This document shows, piece after piece, positions 37,902 through 59,235 of a DNA stretch of 64,000 nucleotides; position 1 is the first letter of the stretch, and every line of letters starts with the position of its first letter. Origin of the DNA: an uncultured Flavobacteriales bacterium (GTDB lineage: Bacteria; Bacteroidota; Bacteroidia; Flavobacteriales_D; Crocinitomicaceae). The DNA is taken from NCBI GenBank assembly GCA_905478665.1, contig CAJQJL010000029.1:240-64239 (forward strand), written 5' to 3'. The notes beneath the pieces were generated by a model. It was not told the DNA's origin, searched no databases, and was given only the letters and a program-made list of their open reading frames with translations. Position numbers and translations under genes: made by a program.

Positions 37902-37918
37902 GTGATTGAAATTAGCAA

Positions 37919-43592: not shown

Positions 43593-44387
43593 TTATTTAA
43601 CAATTAGCACCAGCGTCGATACGATCAACGAGGTCGCAGAAATGACTATTCCCCCTGCTGAACGCAGAATGGACGCATCATATCGCGCTTTTCTATTCGG
43701 TTCTACGTAAACTACGTCATTCTGTTTCAAATAGTACACGGGAGATTGGAAAATTGCCGTAGTTGTAAGGTCGATTCGATATTCTTTTCTTTCACCGTTT
43801 TCATGTCGAATGACCAGCACATTCTTGCGTTCTCCTGTTATTTTTAAATCTTTTGCAATTCCAATAGCTTCAAGAATTGAGAGTCGTTCATTGGGAACAG
43901 AAAACGTCCCAGGGTTTTTTACTTCACCAAGCACTGTGATTTTAAAGTTGAGTATTCGTAGCGAGACACTAGGGGAATCGAGATATTCTCCAACAACTCT
44001 TTCAACTTCTTTTACCGCTGCATTACGATTTAAGCCCGCAAGTTTCACCTTCCCTACAATGGGAAGTGAAACCGTACTGTCTGGAGCAACCAAATAACCA
44101 TAAGTCGCGGGAATTCCATTTTCGTACGAACCTATTTGATTTCCTTGTCTCACAAGTTCTGCTTGGTTGAAAGGAGCCGCGATTTCATGATCAGCACCCG
44201 TTATTTCAATGGAAAGAACGTCTCCAATTTCTAAATGTGGTGTAAGGTATTGATCAATGTTTTCAATGCTACCATCTCCCGCCTGAAAATAAACAAGCTT
44301 TTTACGATTAACACAAGATCCAAAGATTAGAGGCGCGATCAGTAGTAGAGTGATCATCATTCTCGTACTTGACATAGTTATCAACAT
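43593..44387 (-). CDS. wza: Polysaccharide export outer-membrane lipoprotein (Wza/OPX)
   Basis: Poly_export pattern (GDVLSIEI...) followed by an SLBB-like domain (ITVLGEVKNPG), with lipobox LIFGSC. The ORF-track start (44444) would leave 8 bp to the divergent wbaP, so an internal Met (44387/44375/44360) is more plausible. Confidence 0.82.
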   Translation of the reverse strand: MLITMSSTRMMITLLLIAPLIFGSCVNRKKLVYFQAGDGSIENIDQYLTPHLEIGDVLSIEITGADHEIAAPFNQAELVRQGNQIGSYENGIPATYGYLVAPDSTVSLPIVGKVKLAGLNRNAAVKEVERVVGEYLDSPSVSLRILNFKITVLGEVKNPGTFSVPNERLSILEAIGIAKDLKITGERKNVLVIRHENGERKEYRIDLTTTAIFQSPVYYLKQNDVVYVEPNRKARYDASILRSAGGIVISATSLIVSTLVLIVK

Positions 44388-44400
44388 TTTAATGTAAAAC

Positions 44401-44408
44401 CAAAAATA
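44401..44408 (-). promoter_or_regulatory. Candidate -7 box TATTTTTG for wza-wzc (and possibly the lasso operon)
   Basis: Plus-strand CAAAAATA is minus-strand TATTTTTG (TAnnTTTG), 14 nt upstream of the internal Met at 44387. Confidence 0.3.
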
Positions 44409-44452
44409 GTAGAATAATCCACGGTAAGGTAAATCTTCATACATTTATCACG

Positions 44453-45859
44453 ATGGTCAATCGTAAGATACGGAATTTCGTCGCACGAATGGTGCGTCAC
44501 ACCAAAATCTTGCTGCTACTGATGGACATCGTTGTTTTGAACGTGTCTTTCTTTGCGGCAATATTGATCCGTTTTGGAAAATTGGATGTGGCGTATTTCA
44601 ACGAGTACATGCGGTTATTACTTCTAGGAAATGTACTTTGGATTCTTCTGATAGGTGTTTTTGACGCCTACAAAATAATGCGTTTTGAGCCAGTAGAAGC
44701 GACATTGAAACGTACCTTCAAGATGGTACTCACGCATCTCCCGCTATTTATATTGATGACGTATATCCTTGATTTTAGAGATTCTTCAAGGTTCGTTTTC
44801 TTCATTTTCTTTTTACTCTTCATCGTGGGTATAGTTATGTATAGAATTGTTCTCTTTGAAGTGCTTAAATATTTGAGAAGGCGTGGTGTCAACCACAAGT
44901 TTGTGGCTATTGTAGGTTATAATAACAATGCAAAGGACATCTATGAGGTGCTAACATCTGATATTGCTTACGGATACCGTGTAATGGGATTTTTTACTGA
45001 TGCAGAGGTGAATCCGAATGAGATTCGGTATATCGGGAATATTGACTCTATCGAACAAGAGCTTCAGAAAGGGAGAATTGAGGAGTTGTACATTGCACTG
45101 GCAACAACTAACGCGAGGCGAGTAAAAGGAATTTTCAAATTGTGCGACCGATACGGCGTACGTGTAAAGATAATTCCTGACTTCCAGAAGTATACCTCTG
45201 CCCATCGCGTTCAGATTCGATACTACAGTCATGTGCCCGTTCTTAGAATGCGCCGTGAACCACTGGCCTATTTTTCAAATCAGGTGATTAAAAGGGCCTT
45301 CGACATTATTTTTTCACTGATTATAATCTTGGGAGTACTGACATGGCTATTTCCAATTGTAGCGATCGCTGTTAAATTGACATCAAAAGGCCCTGTACTT
45401 TTTAAGCAAAAGCGTTCAGGGGTAGATGGTGAAATCTTCACGTGCTATAAGATTCGAACAATGGTTGTTGACGGTGATTTTAATGAAAAAGGTACAATGA
45501 AAAACGATCCAAGGGTTACGCGTTTAGGGCGTTTTTTACGAAAATCAAAAATTGACGAGCTTCCTCAGTTTGTGAATGTATTGGTTGGAACAATGTCTGT
45601 TGTCGGGCCGCGTCCACACATGTTAATTCATACTGAGAAGTATTCGGAAATGATTAATGAGTTTAATGTTCGGCATTACGTGAAGCCAGGCATTACAGGT
45701 TGGGCACAGACTGTTGGTTTTATCGATTCTTCTCAGAAGCTCAAAGAGATGAAAAACAAAGTAAACAATGACATCTGGTACATTGAAAATTGGTCCTTCC
45801 TTCTTGATCTTAAGATTATTTTGAATACGACATTCGCCATTTTTAAAAAAGAAGATTAA
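44453..45859 (+). CDS. Undecaprenyl-phosphate hexose-1-phosphate transferase (WbaP-type initiating sugar transferase)
   Basis: 468 aa with N-terminal TM bundle. C-terminal bacterial sugar transferase domain: KRAFDIIFSL...GPVLFKQKRSG...DELPQFVNVLVGTMSVVGPRP. Confidence 0.88.
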   Translation: MVNRKIRNFVARMVRHTKILLLLMDIVVLNVSFFAAILIRFGKLDVAYFNEYMRLLLLGNVLWILLIGVFDAYKIMRFEPVEATLKRTFKMVLTHLPLFILMTYILDFRDSSRFVFFIFFLLFIVGIVMYRIVLFEVLKYLRRRGVNHKFVAIVGYNNNAKDIYEVLTSDIAYGYRVMGFFTDAEVNPNEIRYIGNIDSIEQELQKGRIEELYIALATTNARRVKGIFKLCDRYGVRVKIIPDFQKYTSAHRVQIRYYSHVPVLRMRREPLAYFSNQVIKRAFDIIFSLIIILGVLTWLFPIVAIAVKLTSKGPVLFKQKRSGVDGEIFTCYKIRTMVVDGDFNEKGTMKNDPRVTRLGRFLRKSKIDELPQFVNVLVGTMSVVGPRPHMLIHTEKYSEMINEFNVRHYVKPGITGWAQTVGFIDSSQKLKEMKNKVNNDIWYIENWSFLLDLKIILNTTFAIFKKED

Positions 45860-46929
45860 AGTAGATCTTCGTACTTTTCGCAGATTGCATTCCAGGTGTA
45901 TTTTTCCAGAGCTATTTTTTTCATCGCGACTGCATTGTTCACAGGGTTGTTCGTGACTAAACAGGTTAACTCTTCAACATCGGCGAAATAAGCAGCTTGT
46001 TCATCAGTTGTTGCTCTGTTGTATCCAACATCAAATGCGGCAACATTTAGTCCAAGCATCATTGCTTCTACGAGTGAAGGATTTGTACCTCCCGCGGAGT
46101 GCCCGTGAATATAAATTGAACAATTGGAGCGAATTTCGTTGAGTAAGTGCTGATCATAAATAGGTGAGAGCAAGTGTATATTTTTAGCGTCCTTGTATTG
46201 CGCGTATAGCCTTTTTCCATAGTCACTGTATAGCCAGTTGCCGACAAAGACCAAGGTCTCAGGGATTCCATGGAAGCACTCTAAAATACTGTGAATGTTG
46301 TTTTCTGGTTCTATACGACAAACACTAAAGGCGTACGACTCTCGCAAAAATGGATAAGTCTTCTTGTTGTCCTCGGATAGTTCTAATTTCTCAACATGAT
46401 CTGCTCCGTATGGAATCATAACGGACTCAATGCCGTAGGACTCGTCAATGTATTCTTTGATTACAGGATTGTCTGCAATAATGAAATCTGCACGCTTTGC
46501 TGCTAATCGTTCGGAAGTTTTTAAATACCATTTGGCTAATTTGCCCCATTTATCACGTTTCCATTCGGTGCCATCAACATGAACAATGAATTTTCGTTTG
46601 AAAAATAGCTTGAAAAATGGAATTGCAAAACAGCCAGCTACTCCAAGAATGAGTAAAGTGTCATGCTTTCGAATAGCTTTAGCAATTGACCAAAGATCAT
46701 AAGGAATACTTTGGAATCCATTTGCTTTTAAGGGGACGTATTTTAGTTTTGCGCCGTTGTGTTCTGCCAATCGCTCAGGATAAGATTTACTGCTGCAATA
46801 CACCGTAATGTTGTACTTGCCCTCAAGTGTTTGGGTGAGGTATTCAACAAGCGTTTCAAAACCACCGTATTTGGCAGGAATTCCTACTGACCCTATGATG
46901 GCAACTTTTTTCAATCCAGTTTCTGACAA
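45856..46929 (-). CDS. Glycosyltransferase family 4 with DUF1972-type N-terminus
   Basis: 357 aa with VAIIGSVGIPAKYGGFETLVEYL (DUF1972 pattern) and a GT-B C-terminal half (HGHSAGGTNPSLVEAM). Confidence 0.8.
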   Translation of the reverse strand: MSETGLKKVAIIGSVGIPAKYGGFETLVEYLTQTLEGKYNITVYCSSKSYPERLAEHNGAKLKYVPLKANGFQSIPYDLWSIAKAIRKHDTLLILGVAGCFAIPFFKLFFKRKFIVHVDGTEWKRDKWGKLAKWYLKTSERLAAKRADFIIADNPVIKEYIDESYGIESVMIPYGADHVEKLELSEDNKKTYPFLRESYAFSVCRIEPENNIHSILECFHGIPETLVFVGNWLYSDYGKRLYAQYKDAKNIHLLSPIYDQHLLNEIRSNCSIYIHGHSAGGTNPSLVEAMMLGLNVAAFDVGYNRATTDEQAAYFADVEELTCLVTNNPVNNAVAMKKIALEKYTWNAICEKYEDLL

Positions 46930-46950
46930 ATGCGTTTCTTGAATACCAAG

Positions 46951-48081
46951 TTAATTATTTTGATTCAGCAAGTGGGAGTACAGTGCTTTTGTTCGCTCAC
47001 CTATAATCTTCCAATCGAATTTATCCTTGAGGAGTTCAGAGGCTTTGCTGCTGACCTCTTTTAATTTGTTTTTATCACGTTCAATCTCCAATAGAACTCT
47101 GGATAAATCTTGCGCGGATTCAGATTGAAAGAGAAAACCATTTTTTCCATGCTCAATGATTTCAGAAAAAGGTTCTAGGTCTGATGTCAAACACGACTTT
47201 TCGTAACTCATAGACAAAAGTAAAACCCCACTTTGGTAGATCCGTTTGTAGGGGAGAACAACTAAATCACACTTAGCAAAGTAATCTGCGACATCTTCGT
47301 TCGGAATGTATTCAAACACTGTCTTTACATGTTGTTCCAGACCATGAAATTTGATCAGTTCCGTGTATTTCTCACTTTCAGTATGCCAAGGCCTGCCTGC
47401 AATTGTTAAGTGAATTGTCGGTTTTGTTTGGATGGCAATTGCGAGCGCTTCCAGAAGTACATCTAGTCCTTTCATTTCTTTGATTTGACCAAAGAATAAC
47501 AGAGACAGTTTTTCTGAATGTGATTCCGATTTGTCAATGCGTTCAATGAAAGGGAGGTAGTTTCCATGAGGGATCACGGTGATTTTTCCAGACGAGACAT
47601 CCTTTTTTGAGAGCTCTTTTCTGCTGAATTCATTGTGGACGATCACATGATCAACAAGTTTGTATGTTAATCGATGAAGTCGAGAAGATGCTTTGTTAAC
47701 CAAAGGATCAACGTCATGTAAGGTCAATACTTTTTTAAATGAATACCTTTTCGCCATGCGCAATACGATCAGGTTTAGCCAGCTAATTTGGAAGAAGTGA
47801 AAGTGAGCTACAGCTGCATTATTCTTCTTTGAATCTTGAAAAGAGCGCATATATCCACCAAGAAATGCCCTGAGTTTTGCCAACTTGTTCTTCTTCCATA
47901 CATCTCCAAAAGTCTTTGATGTAATTACGTTGGGGTATTCGCGCGTTTGCGTTTCATTGCAAGTGTAAAGTGTAACTTCCAATCCATTTGTGGCAATTCC
48001 GTTCGCAAGACCATAATCATAGAAGTCCATGCCGCCATGTCCTCCAACGGGTTCGATGATACTTATTCTTCCGACTGACAC
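46951..48081 (-). CDS. Glycosyltransferase family 4 (GT-B)
   Basis: 376 aa with the EPVGGHGGMDFYD N-terminus and an EX7E-like region in the C-terminal half (...SYEKSCLTSDLEPFSEIIEHGKNGFL). Confidence 0.8.
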   Translation of the reverse strand: MSVGRISIIEPVGGHGGMDFYDYGLANGIATNGLEVTLYTCNETQTREYPNVITSKTFGDVWKKNKLAKLRAFLGGYMRSFQDSKKNNAAVAHFHFFQISWLNLIVLRMAKRYSFKKVLTLHDVDPLVNKASSRLHRLTYKLVDHVIVHNEFSRKELSKKDVSSGKITVIPHGNYLPFIERIDKSESHSEKLSLLFFGQIKEMKGLDVLLEALAIAIQTKPTIHLTIAGRPWHTESEKYTELIKFHGLEQHVKTVFEYIPNEDVADYFAKCDLVVLPYKRIYQSGVLLLSMSYEKSCLTSDLEPFSEIIEHGKNGFLFQSESAQDLSRVLLEIERDKNKLKEVSSKASELLKDKFDWKIIGERTKALYSHLLNQNN

Positions 48082-48572
48082 GTTGCTTCGTTGAATCGTT
48101 TCATAATTTTCGCAGGCGAACCAGTCATCACTGAGCCTGGAGGAACATCTCTGGTAATAACTGAATTGGCGCCAATGATGGATCCTTTGCCGATGGTAAC
48201 TGGCTTGGCAATTACAACGTTGAAACCGATAAAGACATCTTCCTCAATCACTACCTTTCCTTGATAAAATCGGAAATAGTAATCGTCGTCCTCGGAGAGT
48301 TTATCGGTATCTAAAAAGTGCGTAAGTATTTTGACCCCTGAAGTAATAATACAGCGTTTACCAATCCGTACATTCTTTGGATAGATCCCATCGATGATGA
48401 TGTTATCGCCAAAGAAAACCGACCCAACGTCATCAAATTGAACACCACGCATTTTATGGAGGCGTGCTCTGAAATTGCCAGGAAAAATTTCTTTTCGCGC
48501 AAGAATCTGCAATAACTTGTTTATCACTCTGCGGAAACTAGTGACCTTTCGTGCTTCAACTTCCTTGCTCAT
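48063..48572 (-). CDS. Hexapeptide-repeat (LbH) O-acetyltransferase
   Basis: 169 aa with left-handed beta-helix repeats (IGKRCIITSGVKI, IGFNVVIAKPVTIGKGSIIGANSVI) and a PPGSVMTGSPAK tail. Confidence 0.8.
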   Translation of the reverse strand: MSKEVEARKVTSFRRVINKLLQILARKEIFPGNFRARLHKMRGVQFDDVGSVFFGDNIIIDGIYPKNVRIGKRCIITSGVKILTHFLDTDKLSEDDDYYFRFYQGKVVIEEDVFIGFNVVIAKPVTIGKGSIIGANSVITRDVPPGSVMTGSPAKIMKRFNEATCQSEE

Positions 48573-49440
48573 GATGGATGTTTTTTAAGTCCCATAGCTG
48601 AAATAAATCAACATTAATTAAATCGGATAGTGATTGAATGTCATTTCTAAAACAATTGTACAAAAAAATCGCCGATTCCTTGTCTATTGTTGTTTTGGGA
48701 GCTGGCTTGTATAGGACGTTTTTGAAACCGTTTATTAGTTTTTTTGGAACCACAAATTTCAAGGCGGAGACTAATTTTCTGTTCTTCTGTAAATAACGTG
48801 CTACCGAGTTTCTAGGCGCTTTATTCGCATTAACAACCGTATCCGTTGTTACTGAGGAGTCGATGCGTTCAATTCCTAAAAATTGATATAGACCATCAAG
48901 CTCAGCTTCAATTTTTTCTAAAAGAAGAATGTGTATGTTTTCACGCTTGAAGTATTTCAAATAATTGGAAATATTTTCGAAATAGAGGCTATTTTGGACG
49001 TATTGAAGGTAGTGCGGGTCGTTCTTATGTCCAGCGATGTAACTCATGAACGATTCTTCAGCATGCCCCATACGCTTGTCCATTTGGTAATGAGAGAAGG
49101 CCCGCTTGATTGGATTTCTCAGGGCAATGATAATCTTAGAATCAGGGTTGAACTGATACAGTTTTTCTGCCACGGAGGGAAAGGCAAAATAGGAAACACT
49201 TGCATCCACAATGTACTTCTGATTTTCAGCGGAAGAATATAAGCTGAGGTATTTTTTTCGTTCCTTTATTTTGTAGTCTTTGTAATAAGAGTTGACTGAG
49301 AGTTCATCAAAGGAAAAATGGTTCAATTCCTTGATTTTCGGAAAATGCAATTCAGGGTGATCCTTCAATGCTGCGAACAAAAATGTAGTCCCCGCTTTCG
49401 GAGCACCAACAATGAATAAGTTTGGTTGCCTGATCTTCAT
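48556..49440 (-). CDS. PAPS-dependent sulfotransferase 1
   Basis: 294 aa with 5'-PSB loop FIVGAPKAGTTFL and 3'-PB motif ALRNPIKRAFSHY. Confidence 0.85.
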   Translation of the reverse strand: MKIRQPNLFIVGAPKAGTTFLFAALKDHPELHFPKIKELNHFSFDELSVNSYYKDYKIKERKKYLSLYSSAENQKYIVDASVSYFAFPSVAEKLYQFNPDSKIIIALRNPIKRAFSHYQMDKRMGHAEESFMSYIAGHKNDPHYLQYVQNSLYFENISNYLKYFKRENIHILLLEKIEAELDGLYQFLGIERIDSSVTTDTVVNANKAPRNSVARYLQKNRKLVSALKFVVPKKLINGFKNVLYKPAPKTTIDKESAIFLYNCFRNDIQSLSDLINVDLFQLWDLKNIHHEQGS

Positions 49441-49441
49441 T

Positions 49442-50332
49442 TTACCAGTTCGGTTTTTTTCGATTGTATTTGTTCATCAACTGATTGAATTCAAGGTTGT
49501 AATCTTTGTAAAATTCGTTGAGTTCTTCAGAAACACCTTCAGTAGGCTGGTCGTATTTCGAGTGATTTAGTCTACCATAAATTTTCTTTAGAAAGTTCTT
49601 CAGACGCACATTTTTTCTAAAAAACCGTTCGTTTTTCAGAAAGATTTTGGATGCAAGAACACCGACTTTTTGGTTCGTTGGTTTGAAGGACTGGTTCTCG
49701 ACACTGAAATTGTAATTCTTATATGAATCAGGAATTTCCAGCCAATCGCAAATAGTGTTCATTGTTTCGTGTGGCGAAGTAATCAAGTCCTCAAAATAGA
49801 CAATTTTCAAATCGTCGCCAAACGCATTCAGCCACGGTTCGACGTACATGACATAACAACTTTCACGAAGGGATCGATTATAAAAATTATCAAGGTGAAC
49901 ACCATCTTCTTGAAACTGTTTAAAGGCTGCTTGTGACTTCTTATAGAACTCTAAAAGTGTTTCCTTTCCTGAAATCCGTCCAGCTTTTATCGCTTGTTTG
50001 TAGAAAGAAACAAAACGCTTGGACGGGTTTCGAAGAATAAGAAGAACCTTTACTTTTTTGAGTTTTTTAAGTTGATTGATTACAGCGTCTCCTCCGTACA
50101 AATACGATGGACTTACATCTAAGAGAATATCATCTGATTTTGCATCTTTGAAATTTTCGTAGTACGTCTCAATCGAATCGATCTTCTCATTATATACGAG
50201 CGGCGTAAAAAAGTGAAGTTCTTTTTTGAGAGGAGCATAACAGCGATCATGATCGCCCAAATATTTGTAGAGTGATGTTGTTCCTCCCTTATGCACGCCA
50301 GGGATAATTAGGTATGAATTCTCGCTACTCAT
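49442..50332 (-). CDS. PAPS-dependent sulfotransferase 2
   Basis: 296 aa with 5'-PSB loop IIPGVHKGGTTSL and 3'-PB motif ILRNPSKRFVSFY. Confidence 0.8.
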   Translation of the reverse strand: MSSENSYLIIPGVHKGGTTSLYKYLGDHDRCYAPLKKELHFFTPLVYNEKIDSIETYYENFKDAKSDDILLDVSPSYLYGGDAVINQLKKLKKVKVLLILRNPSKRFVSFYKQAIKAGRISGKETLLEFYKKSQAAFKQFQEDGVHLDNFYNRSLRESCYVMYVEPWLNAFGDDLKIVYFEDLITSPHETMNTICDWLEIPDSYKNYNFSVENQSFKPTNQKVGVLASKIFLKNERFFRKNVRLKNFLKKIYGRLNHSKYDQPTEGVSEELNEFYKDYNLEFNQLMNKYNRKKPNW

Positions 50333-51258
50333 GCCTCTTTATAGGATAATGATCTCATTACTTTAAATGCCGCTCGAAGAACTTTAAATCGTTGAGGCGA
50401 TCGAAGGAGTATCCGGAATAGGGTTTTGAAAAAGCTGAACCAATAATTCCTTCTAAACTTTCTGAATGCTTTGCCCTGGAGATGCTTACGAAATGTAACC
50501 CATTGATTCCGCTTCTTGTGGTAGAAGTGAAAATCTAACGCAAGGTTTTTTGAATGCATCCCTTTGTACTTGTTTTTATCACCAAAACTACCTTGTACTT
50601 TATGATAGATAATTGCGTCTGCCGTGTACCAGATTTTAATGTTTTTTTTCGCTGCCCTGATTGAGAGTTCAAGGTCTTCAGCATACATGAAAAAAATCTC
50701 ATCAAAGCCTTCCAATTCTTCGATTGCTTTCCTTGAAAAAAGGATTACACAACCAGAAACAAAAGTAACATAGCGCGATTTGTTGGCCCCTTCAGGACTA
50801 GCCTGTTGATTAAATTCGACGATTTTCGGCCAGCCTTTTTGGTAGTCTATTTCGCCTCCGCCGTACCAGACAAGTGTTGGGTCGTCAGCGAACATTGTTT
50901 TACATGTTACGATACCAGCATTTTGTTCTTTGAGACATGCTTGCATGGTTTGTAAACTTCCAGCGGTAATAAGGGTGTCGTTGTTCAACAATAACAGAGA
51001 ATCAAAATGGATATGTTCTCGCGCCCAATTAATTCCAATATTGTTTGCTTTGCCAAAGCCAAGATTCTCTCCCGTCTGGATTAGATGCATACTGTCGTCT
51101 AGGATCTCAACAAGGCTTGTGTCACTTGGTTCTGAATTGTCGACGATAATAATAAAAGAATGCTTTTCTGAGCGTAGACGGATACTTTCTACACAGGCTT
51201 TTGTGTCTTTAAAGCCGTGGTAGTTTACTAATACAATGACCAGTTTCTTATGTATCAT
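50329..51258 (-). CDS. Glycosyltransferase family 2
   Basis: 309 aa with IVLVNYHGFKDTKACVESI, DNSEP (DxD-like) and GFGKANN, typical of a rhamnosyltransferase-like GT2. Confidence 0.85.
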   Translation of the reverse strand: MIHKKLVIVLVNYHGFKDTKACVESIRLRSEKHSFIIIVDNSEPSDTSLVEILDDSMHLIQTGENLGFGKANNIGINWAREHIHFDSLLLLNNDTLITAGSLQTMQACLKEQNAGIVTCKTMFADDPTLVWYGGGEIDYQKGWPKIVEFNQQASPEGANKSRYVTFVSGCVILFSRKAIEELEGFDEIFFMYAEDLELSIRAAKKNIKIWYTADAIIYHKVQGSFGDKNKYKGMHSKNLALDFHFYHKKRNQWVTFRKHLQGKAFRKFRRNYWFSFFKTLFRILLRSPQRFKVLRAAFKVMRSLSYKEA

Positions 51259-52465
51259 CGTCCTCAGTTTGAGTTTTGAGTTCCCTTCTTCCTACCTCAA
51301 CAAAAACAAGTATACACATGAATTCAGCTGGAGAATTAAGAGATCTTCCTGTTAAGATAGTATGAATAATCAGAAAGAGTAAAAAGAGCTTGAATTCGGC
51401 ACTAAGTACTTCTCTAATTAAAGCACCCTTGGCAAGGCTTTTCCAAACGTAATGCGATTGTTTAAAGAAGATAAGTAAACCGAAAATGCCATATGAGTAT
51501 AAGATACCGATAAGTCCAATGTCGGAGACGTGAAAATAGCTTGTTTTAGAAACTTTGTCTTTCTCGCTACTTCGAATTCGTCCTACTCCAGTGAGCGGAT
51601 ATTTTTTTATGCTTTCAAGGGCAAATAATGATTGCGTTACTCGAATTGCCATTGATGAATCGGAGAAATCGTCACTGTTTTCTTCAAAAATTTCAAATGT
51701 TGCACTCATCTTTTTAGCGAATTCTTGACCAATTGGGGTGACTGACAATACCGTTACTAGAATTGGGACAACGAAAATGGTAATTGCTATTATTTTTAGC
51801 CCTACGGTTCTTTTTCGGTAATTGAAAAGCAATACTCCCAGACACATGGCGAACACGAATAACAGATAACGTTGAAAATCTGCCCAGTGATTAACCGAGA
51901 AAAGTATTAACGCAAAAGCAAGGTATTTGAAATGGTTTTTTTTGAAGAATTGAACGAGATAGATGATGGCTCCAAGGTTGACAATTCCTTTTCTCAGTGA
52001 TTGAAAACCGAAGACGGTATCGCTGGATGTGCTTGAAGGGAACTGCACTTGAAGCAAGAAGAGCAATGCAAAGAATGCAAGGAAAACCCATGCCGTCGAC
52101 AGTAGGCTTTTTCTTACAAGTTCCATGCTAATGGAATAGCGGATAAGGAGATAGTAGATGAGAAAAGAAGTTCCAACGATGAATATGGAAGAGCTGGCAA
52201 TAAATCCAGAAAAGTACGATTGATGATGAATCGATTTTGCCGATATTATCGAGATCGCAAGTAGAGCAATAAATAAAAGTCCAAATTGACGCAAAGGCTT
52301 GGGAAACTTTCTGAAATAGATTCCAAATACGCCAAACCCTACAGCACTGATGGCCATTGATGCGTATTTTGCATACTTAGCCACTGTGGTAAGAGCAAAT
52401 GCATCAAGGGTTAAGACGAGTGCCGTAATGATGATTAGGAGTGCTATGTACTTCCTTTTTATCAA
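51248..52465 (-). CDS. O-antigen/EPS polymerase (Wzy-like) membrane protein
   Basis: 405 aa with 10 or more TM segments and a larger loop late in the sequence. It lies inside the Wzx/Wzy locus. The family is poorly conserved, so the call is mainly positional. Confidence 0.55.
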   Translation of the reverse strand: MIKRKYIALLIIITALVLTLDAFALTTVAKYAKYASMAISAVGFGVFGIYFRKFPKPLRQFGLLFIALLAISIISAKSIHHQSYFSGFIASSSIFIVGTSFLIYYLLIRYSISMELVRKSLLSTAWVFLAFFALLFLLQVQFPSSTSSDTVFGFQSLRKGIVNLGAIIYLVQFFKKNHFKYLAFALILFSVNHWADFQRYLLFVFAMCLGVLLFNYRKRTVGLKIIAITIFVVPILVTVLSVTPIGQEFAKKMSATFEIFEENSDDFSDSSMAIRVTQSLFALESIKKYPLTGVGRIRSSEKDKVSKTSYFHVSDIGLIGILYSYGIFGLLIFFKQSHYVWKSLAKGALIREVLSAEFKLFLLFLIIHTILTGRSLNSPAEFMCILVFVEVGRRELKTQTEDDDT

Positions 52466-53430
52466 GTTGTTTGTTTACCTCCCTTCCAAAAGGAGAAATC
52501 TATATTCGTTAGTTCTGTTAATGTTTCAATTTCGTTCGCGTAATAGTGCTCGAAGAGTTCATCTCGTTTTACAGCGTCTAACCTAGCTTGCAGTCCAATT
52601 TCCTGACTATTGATTTGTCCTACTTTTTGCTTCATAGCCCGACGTGTTTTTTGTGGAATGAGGGGCTTGATCATGCGCTTAAGTAAATTATTTTTATTCA
52701 CTAGCTGTTGTACCTTTTTTGACTTCGTTTCCGATGCAACATTGCTCTTAATCGATGTGTTTAATTTAACGTATTTCACTCCAAGAAAAGACTGAATAAT
52801 TTTTAATGTGTCGTCCAGCCCTTGTTTAATGTTCTGTTCAAAAGAAAGAATAAGGATGTTCTCTGCTGGAAATAAATTAAGGTATCGCTTTACTTGTGAT
52901 ACGTATCTTCCCCGATCCAGATAGCTAAAATGATTTCGCTCAAAATCTCCTTGTAAAATACGTTTTGGTTCTGCTTCAATTGCTTCTTCAAAACTTAGTT
53001 CTTCAAATCCGCGTCGCTTTGACATCAGATAGTGAGAATAGGCACGGTCCACAGGATGGCGTAGTACGATGATGAGTTTAAGATCTTCAGTGAGATGTTC
53101 GGCAATGCGTGATGGGACTTCAGGATAATACAAGTATTCGGGTGTCATTGCGCCAATAATGGGCTCATCGTTATAGGTGCTAAAAAATTCGTTCATCCAC
53201 CAGTCAAGTCCTTTTTTGTATCGGTCTTCGTTATCAAAAAAATGTGCCTCCTTTCTTTCTGGCAAATAAACTTGTGGATGTTGTTTTAAAATATCGTGCA
53301 GACTTGTTGTCCCAGCCTTTTGGGCTCCTACACAAAGGAAATTTGGAGTCTTGGATTTATTCACGATAGCGAATGAGTTTAGCAGGAACCCCACCGAAGA
53401 TGGCGTTTTCGGGGACATCCTTTGTGACAA
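52462..53430 (-). CDS. PAPS-dependent sulfotransferase 3
   Basis: 5'-PSB loop LCVGAQKAGTTSL and 3'-PB motif VLRHPVDRAYSHY. The ORF-track start overlaps the upstream gene by 74 nt. A GTG at 53364 (VNKSKTPNF...) gives an 8-nt overlap and an N-terminus the same length as the two paralogs. Confidence 0.85.
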   Translation of the reverse strand: MSQRMSPKTPSSVGFLLNSFAIVNKSKTPNFLCVGAQKAGTTSLHDILKQHPQVYLPERKEAHFFDNEDRYKKGLDWWMNEFFSTYNDEPIIGAMTPEYLYYPEVPSRIAEHLTEDLKLIIVLRHPVDRAYSHYLMSKRRGFEELSFEEAIEAEPKRILQGDFERNHFSYLDRGRYVSQVKRYLNLFPAENILILSFEQNIKQGLDDTLKIIQSFLGVKYVKLNTSIKSNVASETKSKKVQQLVNKNNLLKRMIKPLIPQKTRRAMKQKVGQINSQEIGLQARLDAVKRDELFEHYYANEIETLTELTNIDFSFWKGGKQTT

Positions 53431-53914
53431 CTGCGTTTGCTCCGATGATTGCGCCTGAACCGATTGTAATCCCTTTTGTAATTACAGCGCCATGTCCTAT
53501 CCAGACGTTGTCGTTGATAATAATTGGAGCCGTTGTAATGCCTTGTTCAATCATTGGTATATTGATGTTAGAAAATCCGTGATCGGTATCTCGAATTGAC
53601 ACGCTTTGGGCAATCATTACGTTCTTACCAATGTCGATTTTCTCATTGCAGCCTATCGTTGAAAATGAACCAATAAACGAACGTTCTCCAAGGCGGATTT
53701 CACCAGATCCTTGAATCAGAACATCGCTGTAGATATTCGCGCGATTTTCAAGTGTTAATTTCAAGCGCGAATTTTGTTTCGAGAAAGGACGAATTGTCAC
53801 GCGTTTTCGAACAGTATTATTGCCCTTTAACTGAATGTATGGAGAATATCGCATTCGGAAGGCAAGAGTACTCATGCGGTCTTTTAATCGATATATGAAA
53901 GTATGGATACTCAT
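53357..53914 (-). CDS. Hexapeptide-repeat (LbH) O-acetyltransferase
   Basis: 185 aa with IGKNVMIAQSVSI, IGHGAVITKGITIGSGAIIGANAVV and ENAIFGGVPAKLI. Confidence 0.8.
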   Translation of the reverse strand: MSIHTFIYRLKDRMSTLAFRMRYSPYIQLKGNNTVRKRVTIRPFSKQNSRLKLTLENRANIYSDVLIQGSGEIRLGERSFIGSFSTIGCNEKIDIGKNVMIAQSVSIRDTDHGFSNINIPMIEQGITTAPIIINDNVWIGHGAVITKGITIGSGAIIGANAVVTKDVPENAIFGGVPAKLIRYRE

Positions 53915-53915
53915 C

Positions 53916-55241
53916 TTAGTTTACTAGGGGGAAATAATATGTTTTCAGCTTCAGTCTTTTACTTACGTATAAAATGCACATTAGGTTCCAAAGAGAGCCC
54001 GCAACGGTTGATGCGATTGCTGCGCCCAGAATACCCATAAGAGGAATGAGGATCACCGCTATGATGCATTGGAGGGCCAAAGATATGAGTGCTGTATTCC
54101 GCAAAACTTTTTGATTACCACTCATATTTAAAAAAAGGCCGACTGATCCTGTTGCCGCATTTATGAGCTGTCCAATAACCAAAACTATCAGCGTAAGTTG
54201 ACCGCTAGCAAAATCATCTCCGAAGATTCCAAGCACCCATTTTGAAGCGATAATCACTGCTATCGAAAGGAATAATGCGGCCCAAAACATCATCTTCGCA
54301 CTTTGACGAATGACCTTTTGAAGTTCTTCTGTTTTCTTCGCCCAAAACAACTCCGAGAATTTAGGAGCGGCAATGGTATTCACAACAACCAAAACAATAG
54401 CGATCAGCTGCGAAATCCGGAACGCTACTCCATAAATTCCAACTTTGTCGGTCGTTGTAAAATATTCGATCATGAACAGTGATACTGCCGCCATAAGCGT
54501 CGAAGAGATAGCCGTAACCATCATTGGTGTGGACACAGTAAGTAGTTCTATTCTGGAAAGAAGTCTTTTTTTAGGTGATTCTATTTTTAACAGATACATC
54601 CAAATAGCGCCATTTGAAAAGAAGCTGTTGATGACAACTCCCAGTACAAAGAAGTAAATGATATAAACGTTGGGAATCTTTGCTGACCAATAGATGATTA
54701 AGCAAATGGCCACGATCAATGGGCGCAATACGCTGCGAATAAACTCTGATATTTTTAATTTTTTCAGTCCACGAATAAACTCGACTCCAATACGATTCAG
54801 TGCAAAGAAGGGAAGCGCGATTCCTGTAATTTCAATAGCTTGGGTGTAATTAATATTCTTGAAAACGTAAAGGGCAATTTGTTCTGAAGAGAGAAAAACC
54901 AGAAGTCCAAGCACAATGCTGACAGGAATAACCATGGAGAGAATCCGTGCGTACAAATTGCGCATTTGAGGGGCGTCAGTTGCGTTGTTGTATTGTCCCA
55001 CGTAACGCAGAACAGACACGTTCATTCCAAGCGTGGCGATAACTCCAAGAAGAAGCAGTAATTGATTGATCAGACTGTAGTAGCCAACGCCTTCCGCACC
55101 GTTCTTTCTGGAAATCAAATAGATAACGACATAGCCAAGGGTCATCCCCGTTATTTTCAATACAAAAGTGATTGCACTGCCCGTAAGTAGCTCTTTTAGA
55201 TTGGCATCTTTAGACAGCTTTGATTTTAACCGATTGATCAT
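53916..55241 (-). CDS. wzx: Wzx-type oligosaccharide flippase (MOP superfamily)
   Basis: 441 aa with about 12 TM segments and the polysaccharide-biosynthesis-protein N-terminal pattern (LKELLTGSAITFVLKITGMTLGYV). Confidence 0.8.
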   Translation of the reverse strand: MINRLKSKLSKDANLKELLTGSAITFVLKITGMTLGYVVIYLISRKNGAEGVGYYSLINQLLLLLGVIATLGMNVSVLRYVGQYNNATDAPQMRNLYARILSMVIPVSIVLGLLVFLSSEQIALYVFKNINYTQAIEITGIALPFFALNRIGVEFIRGLKKLKISEFIRSVLRPLIVAICLIIYWSAKIPNVYIIYFFVLGVVINSFFSNGAIWMYLLKIESPKKRLLSRIELLTVSTPMMVTAISSTLMAAVSLFMIEYFTTTDKVGIYGVAFRISQLIAIVLVVVNTIAAPKFSELFWAKKTEELQKVIRQSAKMMFWAALFLSIAVIIASKWVLGIFGDDFASGQLTLIVLVIGQLINAATGSVGLFLNMSGNQKVLRNTALISLALQCIIAVILIPLMGILGAAIASTVAGSLWNLMCILYVSKRLKLKTYYFPLVN

Positions 55242-55289
55242 TGCATTCTAAAGATACGCTCTTTCAGCTATGAATTCGGCGATTGGAAG

Positions 55290-56090
55290 CTATTTTACCA
55301 AAAACCAATTGTTGAGAAGGTTCTCACGATTGTAAAGCATGGTTTTTTGTGTTTTCCAATCGATAACATCAAATCCAGCGTGCATGCAAATAGCCTGTCC
55401 AGCAGCAGTGTCCCATTCCATCGTAGGAGCAAAACGTGGATAACAGTCTGCAGCGCCTTCGGCAACCATACAAAGTTTAAGCGAACTGCCCTTTGAAATA
55501 AGATCAACGCTTCCGTGTTTTTCTTTAAGGTCGTCTATGTAGTCTTGTGTTTCTTCTGATAAATGCGAACGGCTTGCAACAATCGTATAGGTTGATCTAT
55601 TTTTATCGAGTGGGAGTTTTACTCCATGCTTAAGAACATTAATTGTCATTTGAAATTGATCAATATTTTCTGACTTATAAGCTCCATTTTCTTTCGTGGA
55701 GAAATACAATTCATCTAGGGCAGGGACGCAGATGATTCCTAGTATGGGAATTTGATTTTCAACCAGCGCGATATTTACAGTGAACTCACCATTTTTTTTG
55801 ATGAATTCTTTCGTTCCGTCAATTGGATCAACAATCCATAGTGTATTCCAGTCTTTTCTGTCCGAGTAGGGCATGTGTTTACCTTCCTCCGATAGGACGG
55901 GGATTCCAGTTTTATTTAGGTGTTCAACGATAATTTCATGTGCGGCAACATCTGCGCGAGTAAGTGGTGAATTATCAGATTTGAAATCAACGTCAAAGTC
56001 ATCGGTTTCATAGATTTCCATAATTCGCTTTCCTGCTTCAATGGCTGCCATAGCTGCTAGGTGCAGGTATGAATTAAGGTCATCTTTCAT
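55290..56090 (-). CDS. cysQ: 3'(2'),5'-bisphosphate nucleotidase (PAP phosphatase)
   Basis: 266 aa with inositol-monophosphatase-family motifs LSEE..., WIVDPIDGTKEF and WDTAAG. Confidence 0.88.
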   Translation of the reverse strand: MKDDLNSYLHLAAMAAIEAGKRIMEIYETDDFDVDFKSDNSPLTRADVAAHEIIVEHLNKTGIPVLSEEGKHMPYSDRKDWNTLWIVDPIDGTKEFIKKNGEFTVNIALVENQIPILGIICVPALDELYFSTKENGAYKSENIDQFQMTINVLKHGVKLPLDKNRSTYTIVASRSHLSEETQDYIDDLKEKHGSVDLISKGSSLKLCMVAEGAADCYPRFAPTMEWDTAAGQAICMHAGFDVIDWKTQKTMLYNRENLLNNWFLVK

Positions 56091-56096
56091 AGTGTC

Positions 56097-57359
56097 TTAT
56101 TGCGTAATAATCATGCCTGCTGCAACCGTTTCGTTGGTTGAGTCATCGATAAGAATAATACTTCCTGTAATTCGATTGTCTCTGTAGGAATCGATCATCA
56201 AAGGTTTTGTCGTCCGTATTTTTGCGCGACAGATATCATTCATGTTGAGTTCTTTGTCTGCTGTATCGCGGTCAAAAGTGTTGACGTCTACTTTGTAAAT
56301 GACTTCTTTAATAATCGCCTTTTGTTCGTTTGAAGTATGCATGATTGAATACTTTGCACGAGGTTTGGCTGGGGAATCATTGAGCCAACAAAGCATGACT
56401 TCAATGTCTTGTGAGCATTCAGGTCGGTTCTTCGCACGTACAATCATGTCTCCACGGCTAACGTCAATGTCATCCTCAAGTGTTATGGATACTGACATGG
56501 GAGCAAATGCTTCATCCAGTGAACCATCTTCTGTGTCAATAGACTTTATGCGAGATGCAAATCCAGAAGGAAGTACAAGGACCTCATCGTTTGGACGAAA
56601 AATACCACTTGCAACACGACCTGCATAACCTCTGTAGTCGATAAAGCCTTCGCGTTGTGGGCGCAGAACTGTTTGTACTGGGAAGCGAGCGTCTACTTTA
56701 TTGATGTCACTGCTGATGTGCATTGTTTCTAATGTGTGGAGAAGAGGTGCTCCTGCGTACCAATCCATGTTTTTTGAACGGTTCACTACGTTGTCGCCAT
56801 CAAGTGCGCTTATTGGGATATAATGAACATCCTTGATCAACATTTTTGAAGAGATATTTTCGTATTCTGCAACAATTTCATTGAAAACATCCTCTTTGTA
56901 TTCCACAAGGTCCATTTTATTGACACAAACAACTATGTGGGAGATTTGAAGAAGTGAGGCAATAAATGAATGACGCTTAGTTTGTTCAATTACACCGTTT
57001 CGCGCATCAATTAATATGATTGCTGCATTCGCTGTTGAGGCTCCAGTAACCATGTTTCGGGTGTACTGAATATGTCCAGGTGTATCGGCAATGATAAACT
57101 TTCTCTTTGGTGTTGTGAAATAACGATAAGCCACATCAATAGTGATCCCTTGTTCCCTTTCATCTCTCAATCCATCGGTAAAAAGTGCTAAGTCAACTCC
57201 TGCATGACCTTTACGAATGCTTGTTTTTTCTACGGCGTCTAATTGATCTTCAAAAATGGACTTTGAATCGTATAGAAGTCGGCCAATGAGCGTACTTTTT
57301 CCGTCATCGACACTTCCTGCTGTTGTAAATCTTAATAGTTGACTATTTTCTAAATTCAT
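56097..57359 (-). CDS. cysN: Sulfate adenylyltransferase subunit 1 (GTPase)
   Basis: 420 aa with G1 GSVDDGKSTLIGRLL, DTPGH and NKMD. There is no fused APS-kinase domain. Confidence 0.92.
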   Translation of the reverse strand: MNLENSQLLRFTTAGSVDDGKSTLIGRLLYDSKSIFEDQLDAVEKTSIRKGHAGVDLALFTDGLRDEREQGITIDVAYRYFTTPKRKFIIADTPGHIQYTRNMVTGASTANAAIILIDARNGVIEQTKRHSFIASLLQISHIVVCVNKMDLVEYKEDVFNEIVAEYENISSKMLIKDVHYIPISALDGDNVVNRSKNMDWYAGAPLLHTLETMHISSDINKVDARFPVQTVLRPQREGFIDYRGYAGRVASGIFRPNDEVLVLPSGFASRIKSIDTEDGSLDEAFAPMSVSITLEDDIDVSRGDMIVRAKNRPECSQDIEVMLCWLNDSPAKPRAKYSIMHTSNEQKAIIKEVIYKVDVNTFDRDTADKELNMNDICRAKIRTTKPLMIDSYRDNRITGSIILIDDSTNETVAAGMIITQ

Positions 57360-57368
57360 GTCTTTAGC

Positions 57369-58274
57369 TTAAAAGTACCCTTCACGTTTTCTGTCTTCCA
57401 TTGCGCTCTCCGATCGTTTGTCGTCTGCTCGGTTACCTCGTTCCGTTTGACGCATCGCCGCAACTTCGATTGCTATTTTTTCAATCGTATCTGCCTCAGA
57501 TTCTATTCCTCCAGTTATGGTAATGTCTCCGAGGGTTCTAAAGCGAATTTTCTTCGTCTCAATTTTGTCTTTTTCATCCAGTTTGAGGAATTCAGAATTC
57601 GGAATCCAAGATCCATTTCTCCAAACAACTTCACGTTCATGTGCGAAATAAAGTGAGGGAAGTTCAATCTTTTCACGTTGAAGGTAGTTCCAAACATCCA
57701 TTTCCGTCCAGTTGCTGATTGGGAATACTCTGAAATGTTCTCCTTCATAGTGTTTGCCATTAAACATGTTCCACAATTCGGGTCGCTGATTTTTTGGATC
57801 CCATTGACCAAATTCATCCCGATGTGAGAAAAAACGTTCTTTGGCACGTGCCTTTTCTTCATCTCTACGAGCACCTCCAATTGCACAGTCAATGCGCTCT
57901 GACTCTATGGTGTCCAGCAAGGTTGTGATCTGAAGTGCGTTTCGTGTTGCATTTTTTCCTTTTTCCTCAGCTACACGCCCAGTATCAATTGATTCTTGGA
58001 CGGACCCTACAATTAACTGAACGCCCAATTTTTCTACTAGCTGATCTCTAAATTCGATTGCTTCGGGGAAATTATGACCTGTATCCACATGCATCAAGGC
58101 AAAAGGAATTTTGGATGGGTAGAATGCCTTTTTTGCCAAATGGGTGACAAGAATTGAGTCTTTTCCTCCAGAAAATAGAATTACAGGGTTTTGGAATTTA
58201 GCAAAGACTTCACGTAAGATAAATATTGCTTCAGATTCAAGTTCATCCAAATAATTCAAGTAGTATTTACTCAT
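57369..58274 (-). CDS. cysD: Sulfate adenylyltransferase subunit 2
   Basis: 301 aa with PP-loop LFSGGKDS and the conserved C-terminal ...RFRTLGD...ERGNRADDK... Confidence 0.95.
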   Translation of the reverse strand: MSKYYLNYLDELESEAIFILREVFAKFQNPVILFSGGKDSILVTHLAKKAFYPSKIPFALMHVDTGHNFPEAIEFRDQLVEKLGVQLIVGSVQESIDTGRVAEEKGKNATRNALQITTLLDTIESERIDCAIGGARRDEEKARAKERFFSHRDEFGQWDPKNQRPELWNMFNGKHYEGEHFRVFPISNWTEMDVWNYLQREKIELPSLYFAHEREVVWRNGSWIPNSEFLKLDEKDKIETKKIRFRTLGDITITGGIESEADTIEKIAIEVAAMRQTERGNRADDKRSESAMEDRKREGYF

Positions 58275-58867
58275 GCGCGTTCCAGTTTAGTTCGAATTTT
58301 TTCTAATATCATTTCTACCGCTTCATCAACACTTGTTTTTTCTGTGTCGATTTCTAAATCTGCAGAAACAGGCGGCTCATATGGCGATGAAACACCTGTA
58401 AAGTCACTAATCTCTCCTTTTCTAGCTTTTTTATAAAGCCCTTTAACATCTCTTCGTTCACATTCTTCTATGGAAGTTGTCATATACACTTCCACGTAAT
58501 TTTCTGTACCAACAATTGTACGGATGTTTTCTCTTTCTTTTTCAAATGGAGCGATAAAGGCCGCAAGTACAACGGTGCCAGCATCGACCAGTAGATTTGA
58601 AACTTCAGCAATACGACGGATATTTTCCTTTCGCCCTTCTTGAGTGAAACTAAGGTCTTTGTTTAACCCTTGACGGATATTGTCTCCGTCTAGAAGGTAA
58701 GTGCTGACACCTTTTTTAAAGAGTGCTTGCTCTACAGCATTCGCTACAGTTGATTTTCCAGAACCAGAAAGTCCTGTAAACCAAAGAAGAAAAGAGTTGT
58801 GTTTGTGCTGCTTTCTTCTATCCTCTCGGGTGACTCCGAAGTGCTGCTTTACCGTATTGTTGGTCAT
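58271..58867 (-). CDS. cysC: Adenylyl-sulfate (APS) kinase
   Basis: 198 aa with WFTGLSGSGKST, LDGDNIRQGLNKDL and FISP-like AAFIAPF. Confidence 0.93.
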   Translation of the reverse strand: MTNNTVKQHFGVTREDRRKQHKHNSFLLWFTGLSGSGKSTVANAVEQALFKKGVSTYLLDGDNIRQGLNKDLSFTQEGRKENIRRIAEVSNLLVDAGTVVLAAFIAPFEKERENIRTIVGTENYVEVYMTTSIEECERRDVKGLYKKARKGEISDFTGVSSPYEPPVSADLEIDTEKTSVDEAVEMILEKIRTKLERA

Positions 58868-59091
58868 TTGCTTTTACGTTTGCTTTTTTCCAGACCAAAG
58901 TCTGCTTTGTACCACATGCGTTCATGAAAATAGTAAAGAATCATCTTTATAAAAAATTCCCAACCACCAATAGTTAGTCCTATGAGCGGATCACCAGAGA
59001 TGATCCAAGCAAGTATAATAGTTGTAAGCGATGCAAGAATTCGCCATGTAATAGTCTTGGCAATGTGCCTTTTTCTCGATTGATCTTTCAC
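58864..59091 (-). CDS. DUF2061-family small membrane protein
   Basis: 75 aa with RHIAKTITWRILASLTT... and two TM helices. Overlaps cysC by 4 nt. Confidence 0.65.
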   Translation of the reverse strand: MKDQSRKRHIAKTITWRILASLTTIILAWIISGDPLIGLTIGGWEFFIKMILYYFHERMWYKADFGLEKSKRKSK

Positions 59092-59108: not shown

Positions 59109-59116
59109 CAAATATA
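59109..59116 (-). promoter_or_regulatory. Candidate -7 box TATATTTG for the DUF2061-cysCDNQ-wzx... transcription unit
   Basis: Plus-strand CAAATATA is minus-strand TATATTTG (TAnnTTTG), 18 nt upstream of the ATG at 59091. Confidence 0.35.
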
Positions 59117-59235
59117 AAGGATTGAAAAGAATGAATATAGTGAGTATAGATTGGTATTCAACAATTGACCATTGAAAGATTGATATATCGATTTAGGGAA
59201 AATTTCCTACCTTGTTGCTTAGAAACTACTTGTGC

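Follow-up and report, generated by a model that had tools for sequence, protein, structure and literature searches.

Does a set of genes for the sulfate donor PAPS (3'-phosphoadenosine-5'-phosphosulfate), lying in one run with three sulfotransferase genes and the genes of a Wzx/Wzy polysaccharide locus, serve to sulfate that polysaccharide? The question is raised by a 64,000-nucleotide stretch of DNA, hereafter the window, from an uncultured Flavobacteriales bacterium of the Crocinitomicaceae (assembly GCA_905478665.1, contig CAJQJL010000029.1). The original prediction for this DNA had answered yes, and its core is sustained here: a Wzx/Wzy locus with three PAPS-type, carbohydrate-like sulfotransferases is physically joined to CysC, CysDN and CysQ. 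Starting from the observed gene identities, motifs, order and tight spacing, and from an arrangement that is conserved in other lineages, we consider it likely that the product is an acidic, O-sulfated and acetylated heteropolysaccharide, either a capsule or an exopolysaccharide (EPS), which is made by Wzx/Wzy, exported by Wza/Wzc in a group-1-like manner and provided with PAPS from within the operon.

The open reading frame (ORF) map of positions 45856-59091 on the minus strand reveals an unbroken series of 15 tightly packed genes, whose order is as originally proposed, whereas their number had been put at 14. Genes were assigned with Pfam and NCBIfam profiles, the scores being set against the model cutoffs, and the curated cutoffs are exceeded by CysC, CysD, CysN, CysQ, WcaJ, Wzx, Wzy, Wza, the kinase domain of Wzc and the three sulfotransferases (ST1-ST3). 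In the order of transcription, with AcT denoting acyltransferases and GT glycosyltransferases, the series comprises:

58864..59091, minus strand: DUF2061 small membrane protein of 75 aa, operon gene 1 (PF09834, 74.9 bits)
58271..58867, minus strand: cysC, adenosine-5'-phosphosulfate (APS) kinase, APS to PAPS (PF01583, 220 bits; TIGR00455, 250 versus a cutoff of 138.7)
57369..58274, minus strand: cysD, sulfate adenylyltransferase small subunit (TIGR02039, 416.7 versus a cutoff of 396.6)
56097..57359, minus strand: cysN, sulfate adenylyltransferase GTPase subunit, unfused to CysC (TIGR02034, 551 versus 336)
55290..56090, minus strand: cysQ, 3'(2'),5'-bisphosphate nucleotidase for removal of 3'-phosphoadenosine-5'-phosphate (PAP) (TIGR01331, 266.8 versus 228.8)
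53916..55241, minus strand: wzx, repeat-unit flippase (PF01943, 47.6 versus 28.2; MatE; at least 10 hydrophobic segments)
53357..53914, minus strand: AcT1, hexapeptide-repeat acyltransferase (PF00132, 52.1 bits)
52462..53364, minus strand: ST1, sulfotransferase, 300-aa form (PF00685, 73.3 bits); the longest ORF reaches 53430
51248..52384, minus strand: wzy, polymerase, 378-aa form (PF04932 Wzy_C, 39.4 versus 31.7; at least 7 hydrophobic segments)
50329..51258, minus strand: GT2, glycosyltransferase (PF13641, 51 bits; PF00535, 44.1 bits)
49442..50332, minus strand: ST2, sulfotransferase (PF00685, 56.0 bits)
48556..49440, minus strand: ST3, sulfotransferase (PF00685, 44.7 bits; PF13469, 44.1 bits)
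48063..48572, minus strand: AcT2, hexapeptide acyltransferase (PF00132, 53.4 bits)
46951..48081, minus strand: GT4b, glycosyltransferase (PF00534, 88.3 bits)
45856..46929, minus strand: GT4a, DUF1972-type GT4 resembling Cps2T/WchF (PF09314, 102.8 bits)

The spacers are minimal or negative, as had been claimed, ranging from -19 to +77 nt, and starts and stops overlap at six of the operon junctions, or at eight if the longest ORFs of AcT1 and wzy are used. There are 4-nt overlaps of cysC with DUF2061 and with cysD, and wzx begins 48 nt after cysQ. Going by gene calls, the true starts of ST1, AcT1 and wzy probably lie further in than those of the longest ORFs; for AcT1, the database gene call starts at 53854 and gives 165 aa. 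We note that the longest wzy ORF (51248-52465, 405 aa, TTG start) has no Pfam match at E <=0.01, the 378-aa form passing the gathering score, and that the wzy orthologue in the related locus L010 likewise has no Pfam match, such that detection of Wzy is fragile and dependent on the start.

Profile searches with PF00685 and PF13469, which had been proposed as a check, were carried out, and PF00685 matches all three sulfotransferases, each over the Pfam gathering threshold of 22, with ST3 matching PF13469 in addition. All six predicted motif strings are found exactly and in the predicted pairs: AGTTSL with RHPVDRAYS in ST1 (52462-53364), GGTTSL with RNPSKRFVS in ST2 (49442-50332) and AGTTFL with RNPIKRAFS in ST3 (48556-49440). 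In their fuller form, the first motifs read KAGTTSL, KGGTTSL and KAGTTFL, respectively. The three enzymes share 28-34% identity in pairs and none has a hydrophobic segment; they should therefore reside in the cytoplasm, which is the site of PAPS synthesis.

Among proteins of known structure in the PDB, the bacterial sulfotransferase 3RNL is matched by all three (E 1e-38 for ST1, 1e-10 for ST2 and 1e-25 for ST3). Matches to the heparan sulfate (HS) 3-O-sulfotransferases (3-OST-1/3/5) and to the N-sulfotransferase domain of NDST range from E 1e-19 to 1e-5, and include those of ST1 to the HS 3-OSTs (2e-19), of ST2 to 3-OST-5 (9e-13) and NDST (3e-11), and of ST3 to an HS 3-OST (1e-9). The alignments to 3-OST-5, NDST and 3RNL span both the K-x-G-T-T motif of the 5'-phosphosulfate-binding (5'-PSB) loop and the R-x-P-x-x-R-x-x-S motif of the 3'-phosphate-binding (3'-PB) site. 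Within the Glu-x-His-Phe-Phe region, KELHFF of ST2 is aligned to QEIHFF of 3-OST-5, ST1 has KEAHFF, and the corresponding KELNHF of ST3 is offset by one residue; the Glu-x-His residues are those that we take to be the catalytic base, by comparison with 3-OST structures. Judged by these features, ST1-ST3 are predicted to be intact PAPS-dependent enzymes whose nearest characterised relatives act on carbohydrates. The ST2 family is rare, with 37 matches among 5.8 billion proteins.

The polysaccharide locus is wider than the original prediction, which had confined it to the minus-strand series and an adjoining initiator gene, since wza, wzc and a plus-strand sugar-nucleotide arm also belong to it:

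44453..45859, plus strand: wcaJ-type initiating phosphoglycosyl transferase (TIGR03023, 439.7 versus 410.75)
43593..44444, minus strand: wza, outer-membrane protein for polysaccharide export (OPX) (PF02563, 44.1 versus 28; SLBB)
41208..43589, minus strand: wzc, polysaccharide co-polymerase (PCP-2a) with a bacterial tyrosine kinase (BY-kinase) domain (Wzz and GNVR; TIGR01007, 119.4 versus 108)
60713..61846, plus strand: DegT-family sugar aminotransferase, gene 1 of the plus-strand arm (PF01041, 402 bits)
61856..63187, plus strand: UDP-glucose 6-dehydrogenase, in the plus-strand arm

The initiator, transcribed convergently with the operon, had been named wbaP; this name is withdrawn, as the WbaP model failed (247.7 versus 403) and the WcaJ model, describing an undecaprenyl-phosphate glucose-1-phosphate transferase, passed. 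A WcaJ-type initiator is fitted by the Cps2T-like character of GT4a (E 3e-61 to NF046071 Cps2T, under the equivalog cutoff), in that pneumococcal Cps2T/WchF adds the second sugar to undecaprenyl-diphosphate-linked glucose. The plus-strand arm was followed past the end of the window through the overlapping locus L092, where window coordinates equal L092 positions plus 51855, and there encodes a short-chain dehydrogenase/reductase (SDR) epimerase, a NeuD/PglB-type N-acetyltransferase, a GFO/IDH oxidoreductase, a TviB-like UDP-GlcNAc 6-dehydrogenase, RmlB (above cutoff) and, just outside the window, a CpsB-type (CpsB_CapC) phosphatase with an NCBIfam match under cutoff. As the arm ends near the window-equivalent position 68892, approximately 4.9 kb past the window, the polysaccharide locus spans from ~41.2 kb to the equivalent of 68.9 kb. 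By its gene content, the arm would equip the locus for uronic acids and probably for amino- and acetamido-uronic acids. Between the two arms of the locus lies a plus-strand gene (59212-60561), the position of which is kept in L007 and L010; its product is a member of the OmpA family and carries calcium-binding thrombospondin type-3 repeats.

The export genes also bear on the destination of the polymer. O-antigens are likewise made by Wzx/Wzy loci, PF04932 spans O-antigen polymerases as well as ligases, and kdtA is situated ~6 kb beyond wzc, such that the product could be a sulfated O-antigen of lipopolysaccharide (LPS) that is ligated to lipid A-core. However, the presence of Wza, a BY-kinase Wzc and a CpsB-type phosphatase within the locus is typical of group-1-like capsule/EPS export and not of O-antigen assembly, and we regard an O-antigen as distinctly unlikely compared with a capsule or free EPS.

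An identical locus has also been assembled in JGI metagenome 3300045300, in ENA SOLA22-1 and in other public metagenomes and sequencing runs. In the comparison of synteny that had been suggested as a further check, the arrangement recurs in at least three other lineages, L010, L007 and L008, with ST2 homologues of 60%, 48% and 46% identity, respectively. L010 and L007 preserve the full order of DUF2061, cysCDNQ, wzx, AcT, ST, wzy, GT2, ST, ST, GT4 and GT4 with wcaJ and wza-wzc, only AcT2 being absent, and L008 retains cysD/cysN, wzx, the block ST-wzy-GT2-ST-ST-GT4, the DUF1972 GT and wcaJ. Conservation of gene order at such divergence argues for one functional unit. In L008, a gene for a 23S-rRNA-intervening-sequence protein (L008:612-1076) is found between cysD and cysN, cysQ was not called, and a GH5 'cellulase' gene (L008:12875-13969) is placed among the GT and ST genes. 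More distant metagenome-assembled genomes of Flavobacteriales (L065, L069 and L075) carry two or three sulfotransferases and wzx, with cysQ divergent from cysCDN.

Whether the PAPS genes are private to sulfation was addressed within the window and across related loci. CysD, CysN, CysC and CysQ all exceed their equivalog or subfamily cutoffs, and, in keeping with the original prediction, no cysH/I/J-type domain is present in any ORF of at least 120 aa in the 64 kb of the window, CysD itself aside. The nearest CysD matches, taking one genome per species, are from Aequorivita, Pontimicrobium, Mesonia and Winogradskyella (Flavobacteriaceae), with 84-87% identity, a result by which the organism would be placed in that family. 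Among 40 Flavobacteriaceae-like species loci with CysD identity of at least 80%, cysC adjoins cysDN in 38 and cysQ does so in 38, and polysaccharide genes (rmlABCD, ugd, degT, GTs, wza/wzc) adjoin cysDN within 10 kb in 33. A Wzx-type flippase is encoded within 10 kb of cysDN in 19 of the 40 and at least one sulfotransferase in 15, the latter count being a lower bound because many loci are incomplete. When the ten weakest sulfotransferase hidden Markov model matches were rescanned with Pfam, all ten fell into sulfotransferase families, nine over the gathering score and one being marginal. Cultured carriers include Pontimicrobium sp. IMCC45349, Aequorivita soesokkakensis, Marinirhabdus gelatinilytica, Lutibacter flavus, Salinimicrobium catena, Winogradskyella aurantia and Arenibacter palladensis. 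DUF2061 (58864-59091), a two-helix membrane protein, is a conserved, though uncharacterised, companion of the PAPS module, its gene being found near cysDN, before cysC, in 30/40 loci.

An ordinary, sole sulfate-activation set for assimilation could also simply lie beside a polysaccharide locus, with cysH/sir elsewhere and the sulfotransferases drawing on a general PAPS pool. Indeed, cysDN, cysC and cysQ are standard names of assimilation genes, E. coli-type assimilation requires CysC, and, in the window as in its relatives, sampling was confined to the 10 kb around cysD, leaving room for a distant cysH. Among the best 80 CysD matches, with one genome per species, no two came from one genome, a scan that is uninformative as it was seeded by 8-mers of the query itself and is therefore biased to its own peptides. 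Against this reading, cysDN travels with cysC and cysQ almost throughout the 40 loci and mostly with polysaccharide genes, and in the window cysC overlaps cysD and cysQ lies 48 nt from wzx in one gene string. A regular expression for ECGLH-type CysH found none within 10 kb of cysD in any of the 40 (0/40), which argues weakly for absence, as its sole positives were L067 and L076, both Verrucomicrobia loci, and it flagged no CysH or sulfite reductase in actinobacterial or other distant loci either.

Two functionally separate cysND sets do exist in the family of Kordia: in Kordia itself, cysC is missing from the assimilatory cluster, cysND-cysH-sir, and Kordia antarctica IMCC3317 (Flavobacteriaceae) has, apart from it, an extra cysC-linked cysND copy (PMC7477175). 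This second set resembles the present one in its linkage to cysC, but differs in lying beside an NRPS (non-ribosomal peptide synthetase) cluster and not a polysaccharide locus, and was read by its authors as completing assimilation (PMC7477175). On account of the constant cysC/cysQ linkage, the mostly polysaccharide linkage, the consistent lack of nearby cysH/sir and the comparison with Kordia, the more likely reading is that cysDNCQ is a second, sulfation-serving paralog, as opposed to one shared with assimilation, and we regard a sole assimilatory set as unlikely. By analogy with Kordia, it is plausible that the PAPS module is private, and its genes would then mainly serve sulfation.

A lasso-peptide-like cluster for a peptide that is made by ribosomes and modified after translation (RiPP) adjoins the locus on the minus strand (35036-41202), beginning 5 nt after the wzc stop, and has counterparts at L007:18679-20894 and L010:18604-20870:

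40360-41202, minus strand: HPr-kinase homologue
39957-40367, minus strand: Transglut_core3 (B2-type) protease
39728-39868, minus strand: 46-aa lasso precursor MHTDKNIPNSEKKEWKTPEVKVLNIKEDTSWLVWIFKKEIGKGPGS
37919-39727, minus strand: Asn-synthase-like cyclase, followed by a CxxCxxCC protein and an NTP_transf_5 nucleotidyltransferase

In the window, L007 and L010, the precursors have in common a leader of the form W-x-T-P-x-[VI]-K as well as a Ser at the C-terminus, and the cluster corresponds to the paeninodin/pseudomycoidin type, whose kinase phosphorylates the terminal Ser (PMC8498205). It is absent from L008, and is closely linked to wza-wzc in the window. Further along (31706-33838) lies an OxyR-like unit for oxidative stress, made up of a peroxiredoxin (AhpC/1-Cys Prx), a Dps-type ferritin and a divergent regulator of the LysR family.

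A putative sulfotransferase occurs in some kinase-type lasso-peptide clusters (PMC8498205), and in Bacteroides, BT_0416, which is encoded beside a PAPS module, sulfates cholesterol (PMC9417993). With a lasso-like cluster directly downstream of wzc, ST1-ST3 might thus act on a non-glycan substrate, either a lipid, as in Bacteroides (a sterol or hydroxy-fatty acid), or the lasso-type peptide of the adjoining cluster, and the polysaccharide would remain unsulfated. This is difficult to reconcile with the genes themselves: all three ST genes are set in among wzx, wzy and the GT genes, their stops and starts overlap or nearly abut, and their positions are kept in L007, L010 and L008. In addition, the nearest characterised relatives of ST1-ST3 are carbohydrate sulfotransferases, and three divergent paralogs are more readily matched to three acceptor hydroxyls on a repeat unit than to a single small molecule. 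We therefore hold a non-glycan acceptor to be very improbable. The lasso-type peptide in particular was judged an unlikely substrate, as L008 has ST-wzy-GT2-ST-ST without any lasso cluster. A glycan acceptor, namely the repeat unit of the polysaccharide, is the reading that we adopt for what follows.

From the spacing of the genes, the 15 genes of the operon, PAPS module and polysaccharide genes included, are probably co-transcribed. A candidate promoter element precedes the first of them:

59109..59116, minus strand: TATATTTG, candidate promoter box of the Bacteroidota -7 type, located 18 nt upstream of the start codon of DUF2061

Between 45.8 and 59.2 kb, this box is the sole intergenic match to TAnnTTTG on the minus strand. 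Scans for sigma-70 promoters and for terminators in the window performed no better than on shuffled sequences; terminator-like hairpins were fewer than in shuffles, with none between operon genes and no convincing terminator inside the operon, and an Rfam search of the window found no element. At positions 45856-45859, wcaJ on the plus strand and GT4a on the minus strand converge with a tail-to-tail overlap of 4 nt, so a terminator has no room between them. Between the divergent wza and wcaJ (44375-44488), the starts lie 8-113 nt apart, depending on the choice of start. A minus-strand TAnnTTTG (44401-44408) is located inside the long wza ORF, ~26 nt upstream of the start that other assemblies give for a shorter, 260-aa form, and this position suggests that the shorter form is the real one. 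The GC content and the GC content at third codon positions (GC3) are uniform over the two parts of the locus, PAPS and polysaccharide, and over its flanks; the locus therefore looks native and not newly acquired, and recent horizontal transfer was rejected on these grounds.

In the pathway that we propose, one promoter upstream of DUF2061 would give rise to a 15-gene transcript, from which CysDN would convert sulfate to APS and CysC would convert APS to PAPS. On the cytoplasmic side of the membrane, a hexose-1-phosphate, probably glucose-1-phosphate, would be placed onto undecaprenyl phosphate by the WcaJ-type transferase, and the Cps2T-like DUF1972 GT4, the second GT4 and GT2 would extend it to a repeat of about four sugars, with the plus-strand arm supplying UDP-glucuronic acid, probably amino- or acetamido-uronic acids, and a dTDP-6-deoxyhexose. 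The lipid-linked repeat would then be decorated in the cytoplasm by the three soluble, divergent HS-3-OST-like sulfotransferases and by one or two hexapeptide acyltransferases, while CysQ would hydrolyse the by-product PAP. Finally, the decorated unit would be flipped by Wzx, polymerised by Wzy and exported by Wzc/Wza. The stage of sulfation, the size of the repeat, the degree of sulfation and the identities of the sugars are what we infer from this gene content; the roughly tetrasaccharide repeat with up to three sulfates, in particular, is to be read as a reasonable count of genes (one phosphoglycosyl transferase with three GTs, and three sulfotransferases) and nothing beyond it.

Several points weigh against this interpretation. 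The evidence consists of genes, and the organism is known from an uncultured metagenome contig. The sequence of bacterial PF00685 enzymes does not reveal their acceptor specificity, and the best-studied Bacteroidota sulfotransferase beside a PAPS module acts on sterols and not on glycans (PMC9417993). The cys genes may also feed assimilation, and the locus encodes no sulfate transporter. Co-transcription is deduced from gene spacing, and TAnnTTTG is not significant by itself (43 matches in the window versus 66 expected), so that the box upstream of DUF2061 is consistent with a promoter but does not establish one.

Dedicated PAPS supply for a carbohydrate sulfotransferase has a precedent in rhizobial NodP/NodQ, duplicated homologues of CysD and CysN-CysC that serve NodH. 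The Nod system differs from the present locus in its lipo-chitooligosaccharide signal acceptor, its plasmid-borne nod genes and its lack of Wzx/Wzy machinery. NodH is also mentioned in a 2024 review of bacterial sulfated polysaccharides (PMC11625862). Another likeness is found in Vibrio sp. KMM 8419, where a sulfated capsular polysaccharide has been chemically proven and where PAPS genes together with sulfotransferases in a polysaccharide cluster were called a hallmark by the authors in 2024 (PMC11641403). The same combination is present here, and the Vibrio cluster likewise contains extra cysN/cysD/cysC copies and several sulfotransferases; however, it belongs to a Gammaproteobacterium, forms an 80-gene region with ABC export (kpsMTED) and holds the PAPS genes in a separate sub-region (PMC11641403). 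In contrast to this, the present locus is a compact operon with cysQ and Wzx/Wzy assembly, cysQ and DUF2061 being unreported for Vibrio KMM 8419 (PMC11641403).

The xss cluster for synechan of Synechocystis sp. PCC 6803 is similar in being a Wzx/Wzy EPS cluster in which the sulfotransferases XssA and XssE are interleaved with GTs (PMC8205485). There, the ratio of sugar to sulfate agreed with the counts of GTs and sulfotransferases, and decoration was modelled at the cytoplasmic lipid-linked stage (PMC8205485). For synechan, the model of Wzx/Wzy assembly combined with sulfotransferases is established (PMC8205485). The cluster is distinct, however, in being plasmid-borne and cyanobacterial, with the OPX gene elsewhere and with 8 GTs and 2 sulfotransferases; PAPS goes unmentioned in the paper, and the listed cluster genes include none for PAPS synthesis (PMC8205485). 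Within the same phylum as the present locus, BT_0411-BT_0416 of Bacteroides thetaiotaomicron comprises a PAPS-synthesis set that adjoins a PAPS-dependent sulfotransferase and serves sulfation, but its one sulfotransferase takes a sterol as acceptor, and genes for polysaccharide assembly are lacking (PMC9417993). The present locus unites these known features in one operon, to which it adds cysQ and DUF2061.

How rare is such a locus? The original prediction had stressed that genetically defined sulfated bacterial exopolysaccharides are few, which holds insofar as six genera were counted in the 2024 review (PMC11625862), and in 2021 sulfation was still termed cyanobacteria-specific (PMC8205485). 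Against rarity stand the occurrence of the same locus in other lineages, the common linkage of PAPS and polysaccharide genes in Flavobacteriaceae, whether or not sulfotransferases are present, and the published Vibrio hallmark, and the claim should be toned down accordingly. In a metagenome study of microbial mats, all of its Bacteroidetes genomes were reported to be without sulfotransferases (PMC9723792), and our literature search found no description of sulfated-polysaccharide biosynthesis specific to Flavobacteriaceae or Bacteroidota. Thus, this kind of locus is known in other bacteria yet undescribed in Flavobacteriaceae, which, like Bacteroidota in general, are usually counted solely among the degraders of sulfated glycans.

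We tentatively raise the possibility, to which we would give less than even weight, that sulfated capsules are widespread and overlooked in marine Flavobacteriaceae, and that the cysC/cysQ-linked cysDN, usually found after DUF2061, is a family-wide sulfation paralog within surface-polysaccharide loci. The comparative data point to cultured relatives in which sulfation could be tested directly. Since one compact, self-contained locus supplies the donor, clears the by-product and encodes three distinct HS-3-OST-like sulfotransferases along with the machinery of assembly and export, the system is attractive for the heterologous production of sulfated polymers that resemble glycosaminoglycans, and, if the possibility is correct, the family would offer bacterial O-sulfotransferases for carbohydrates in large number. 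Bacteria that are regarded as the chief degraders of sulfated glycans from algae would then produce sulfated glycans as well, contributing to marine sulfated dissolved and particulate carbohydrate and changing who counts as a source.

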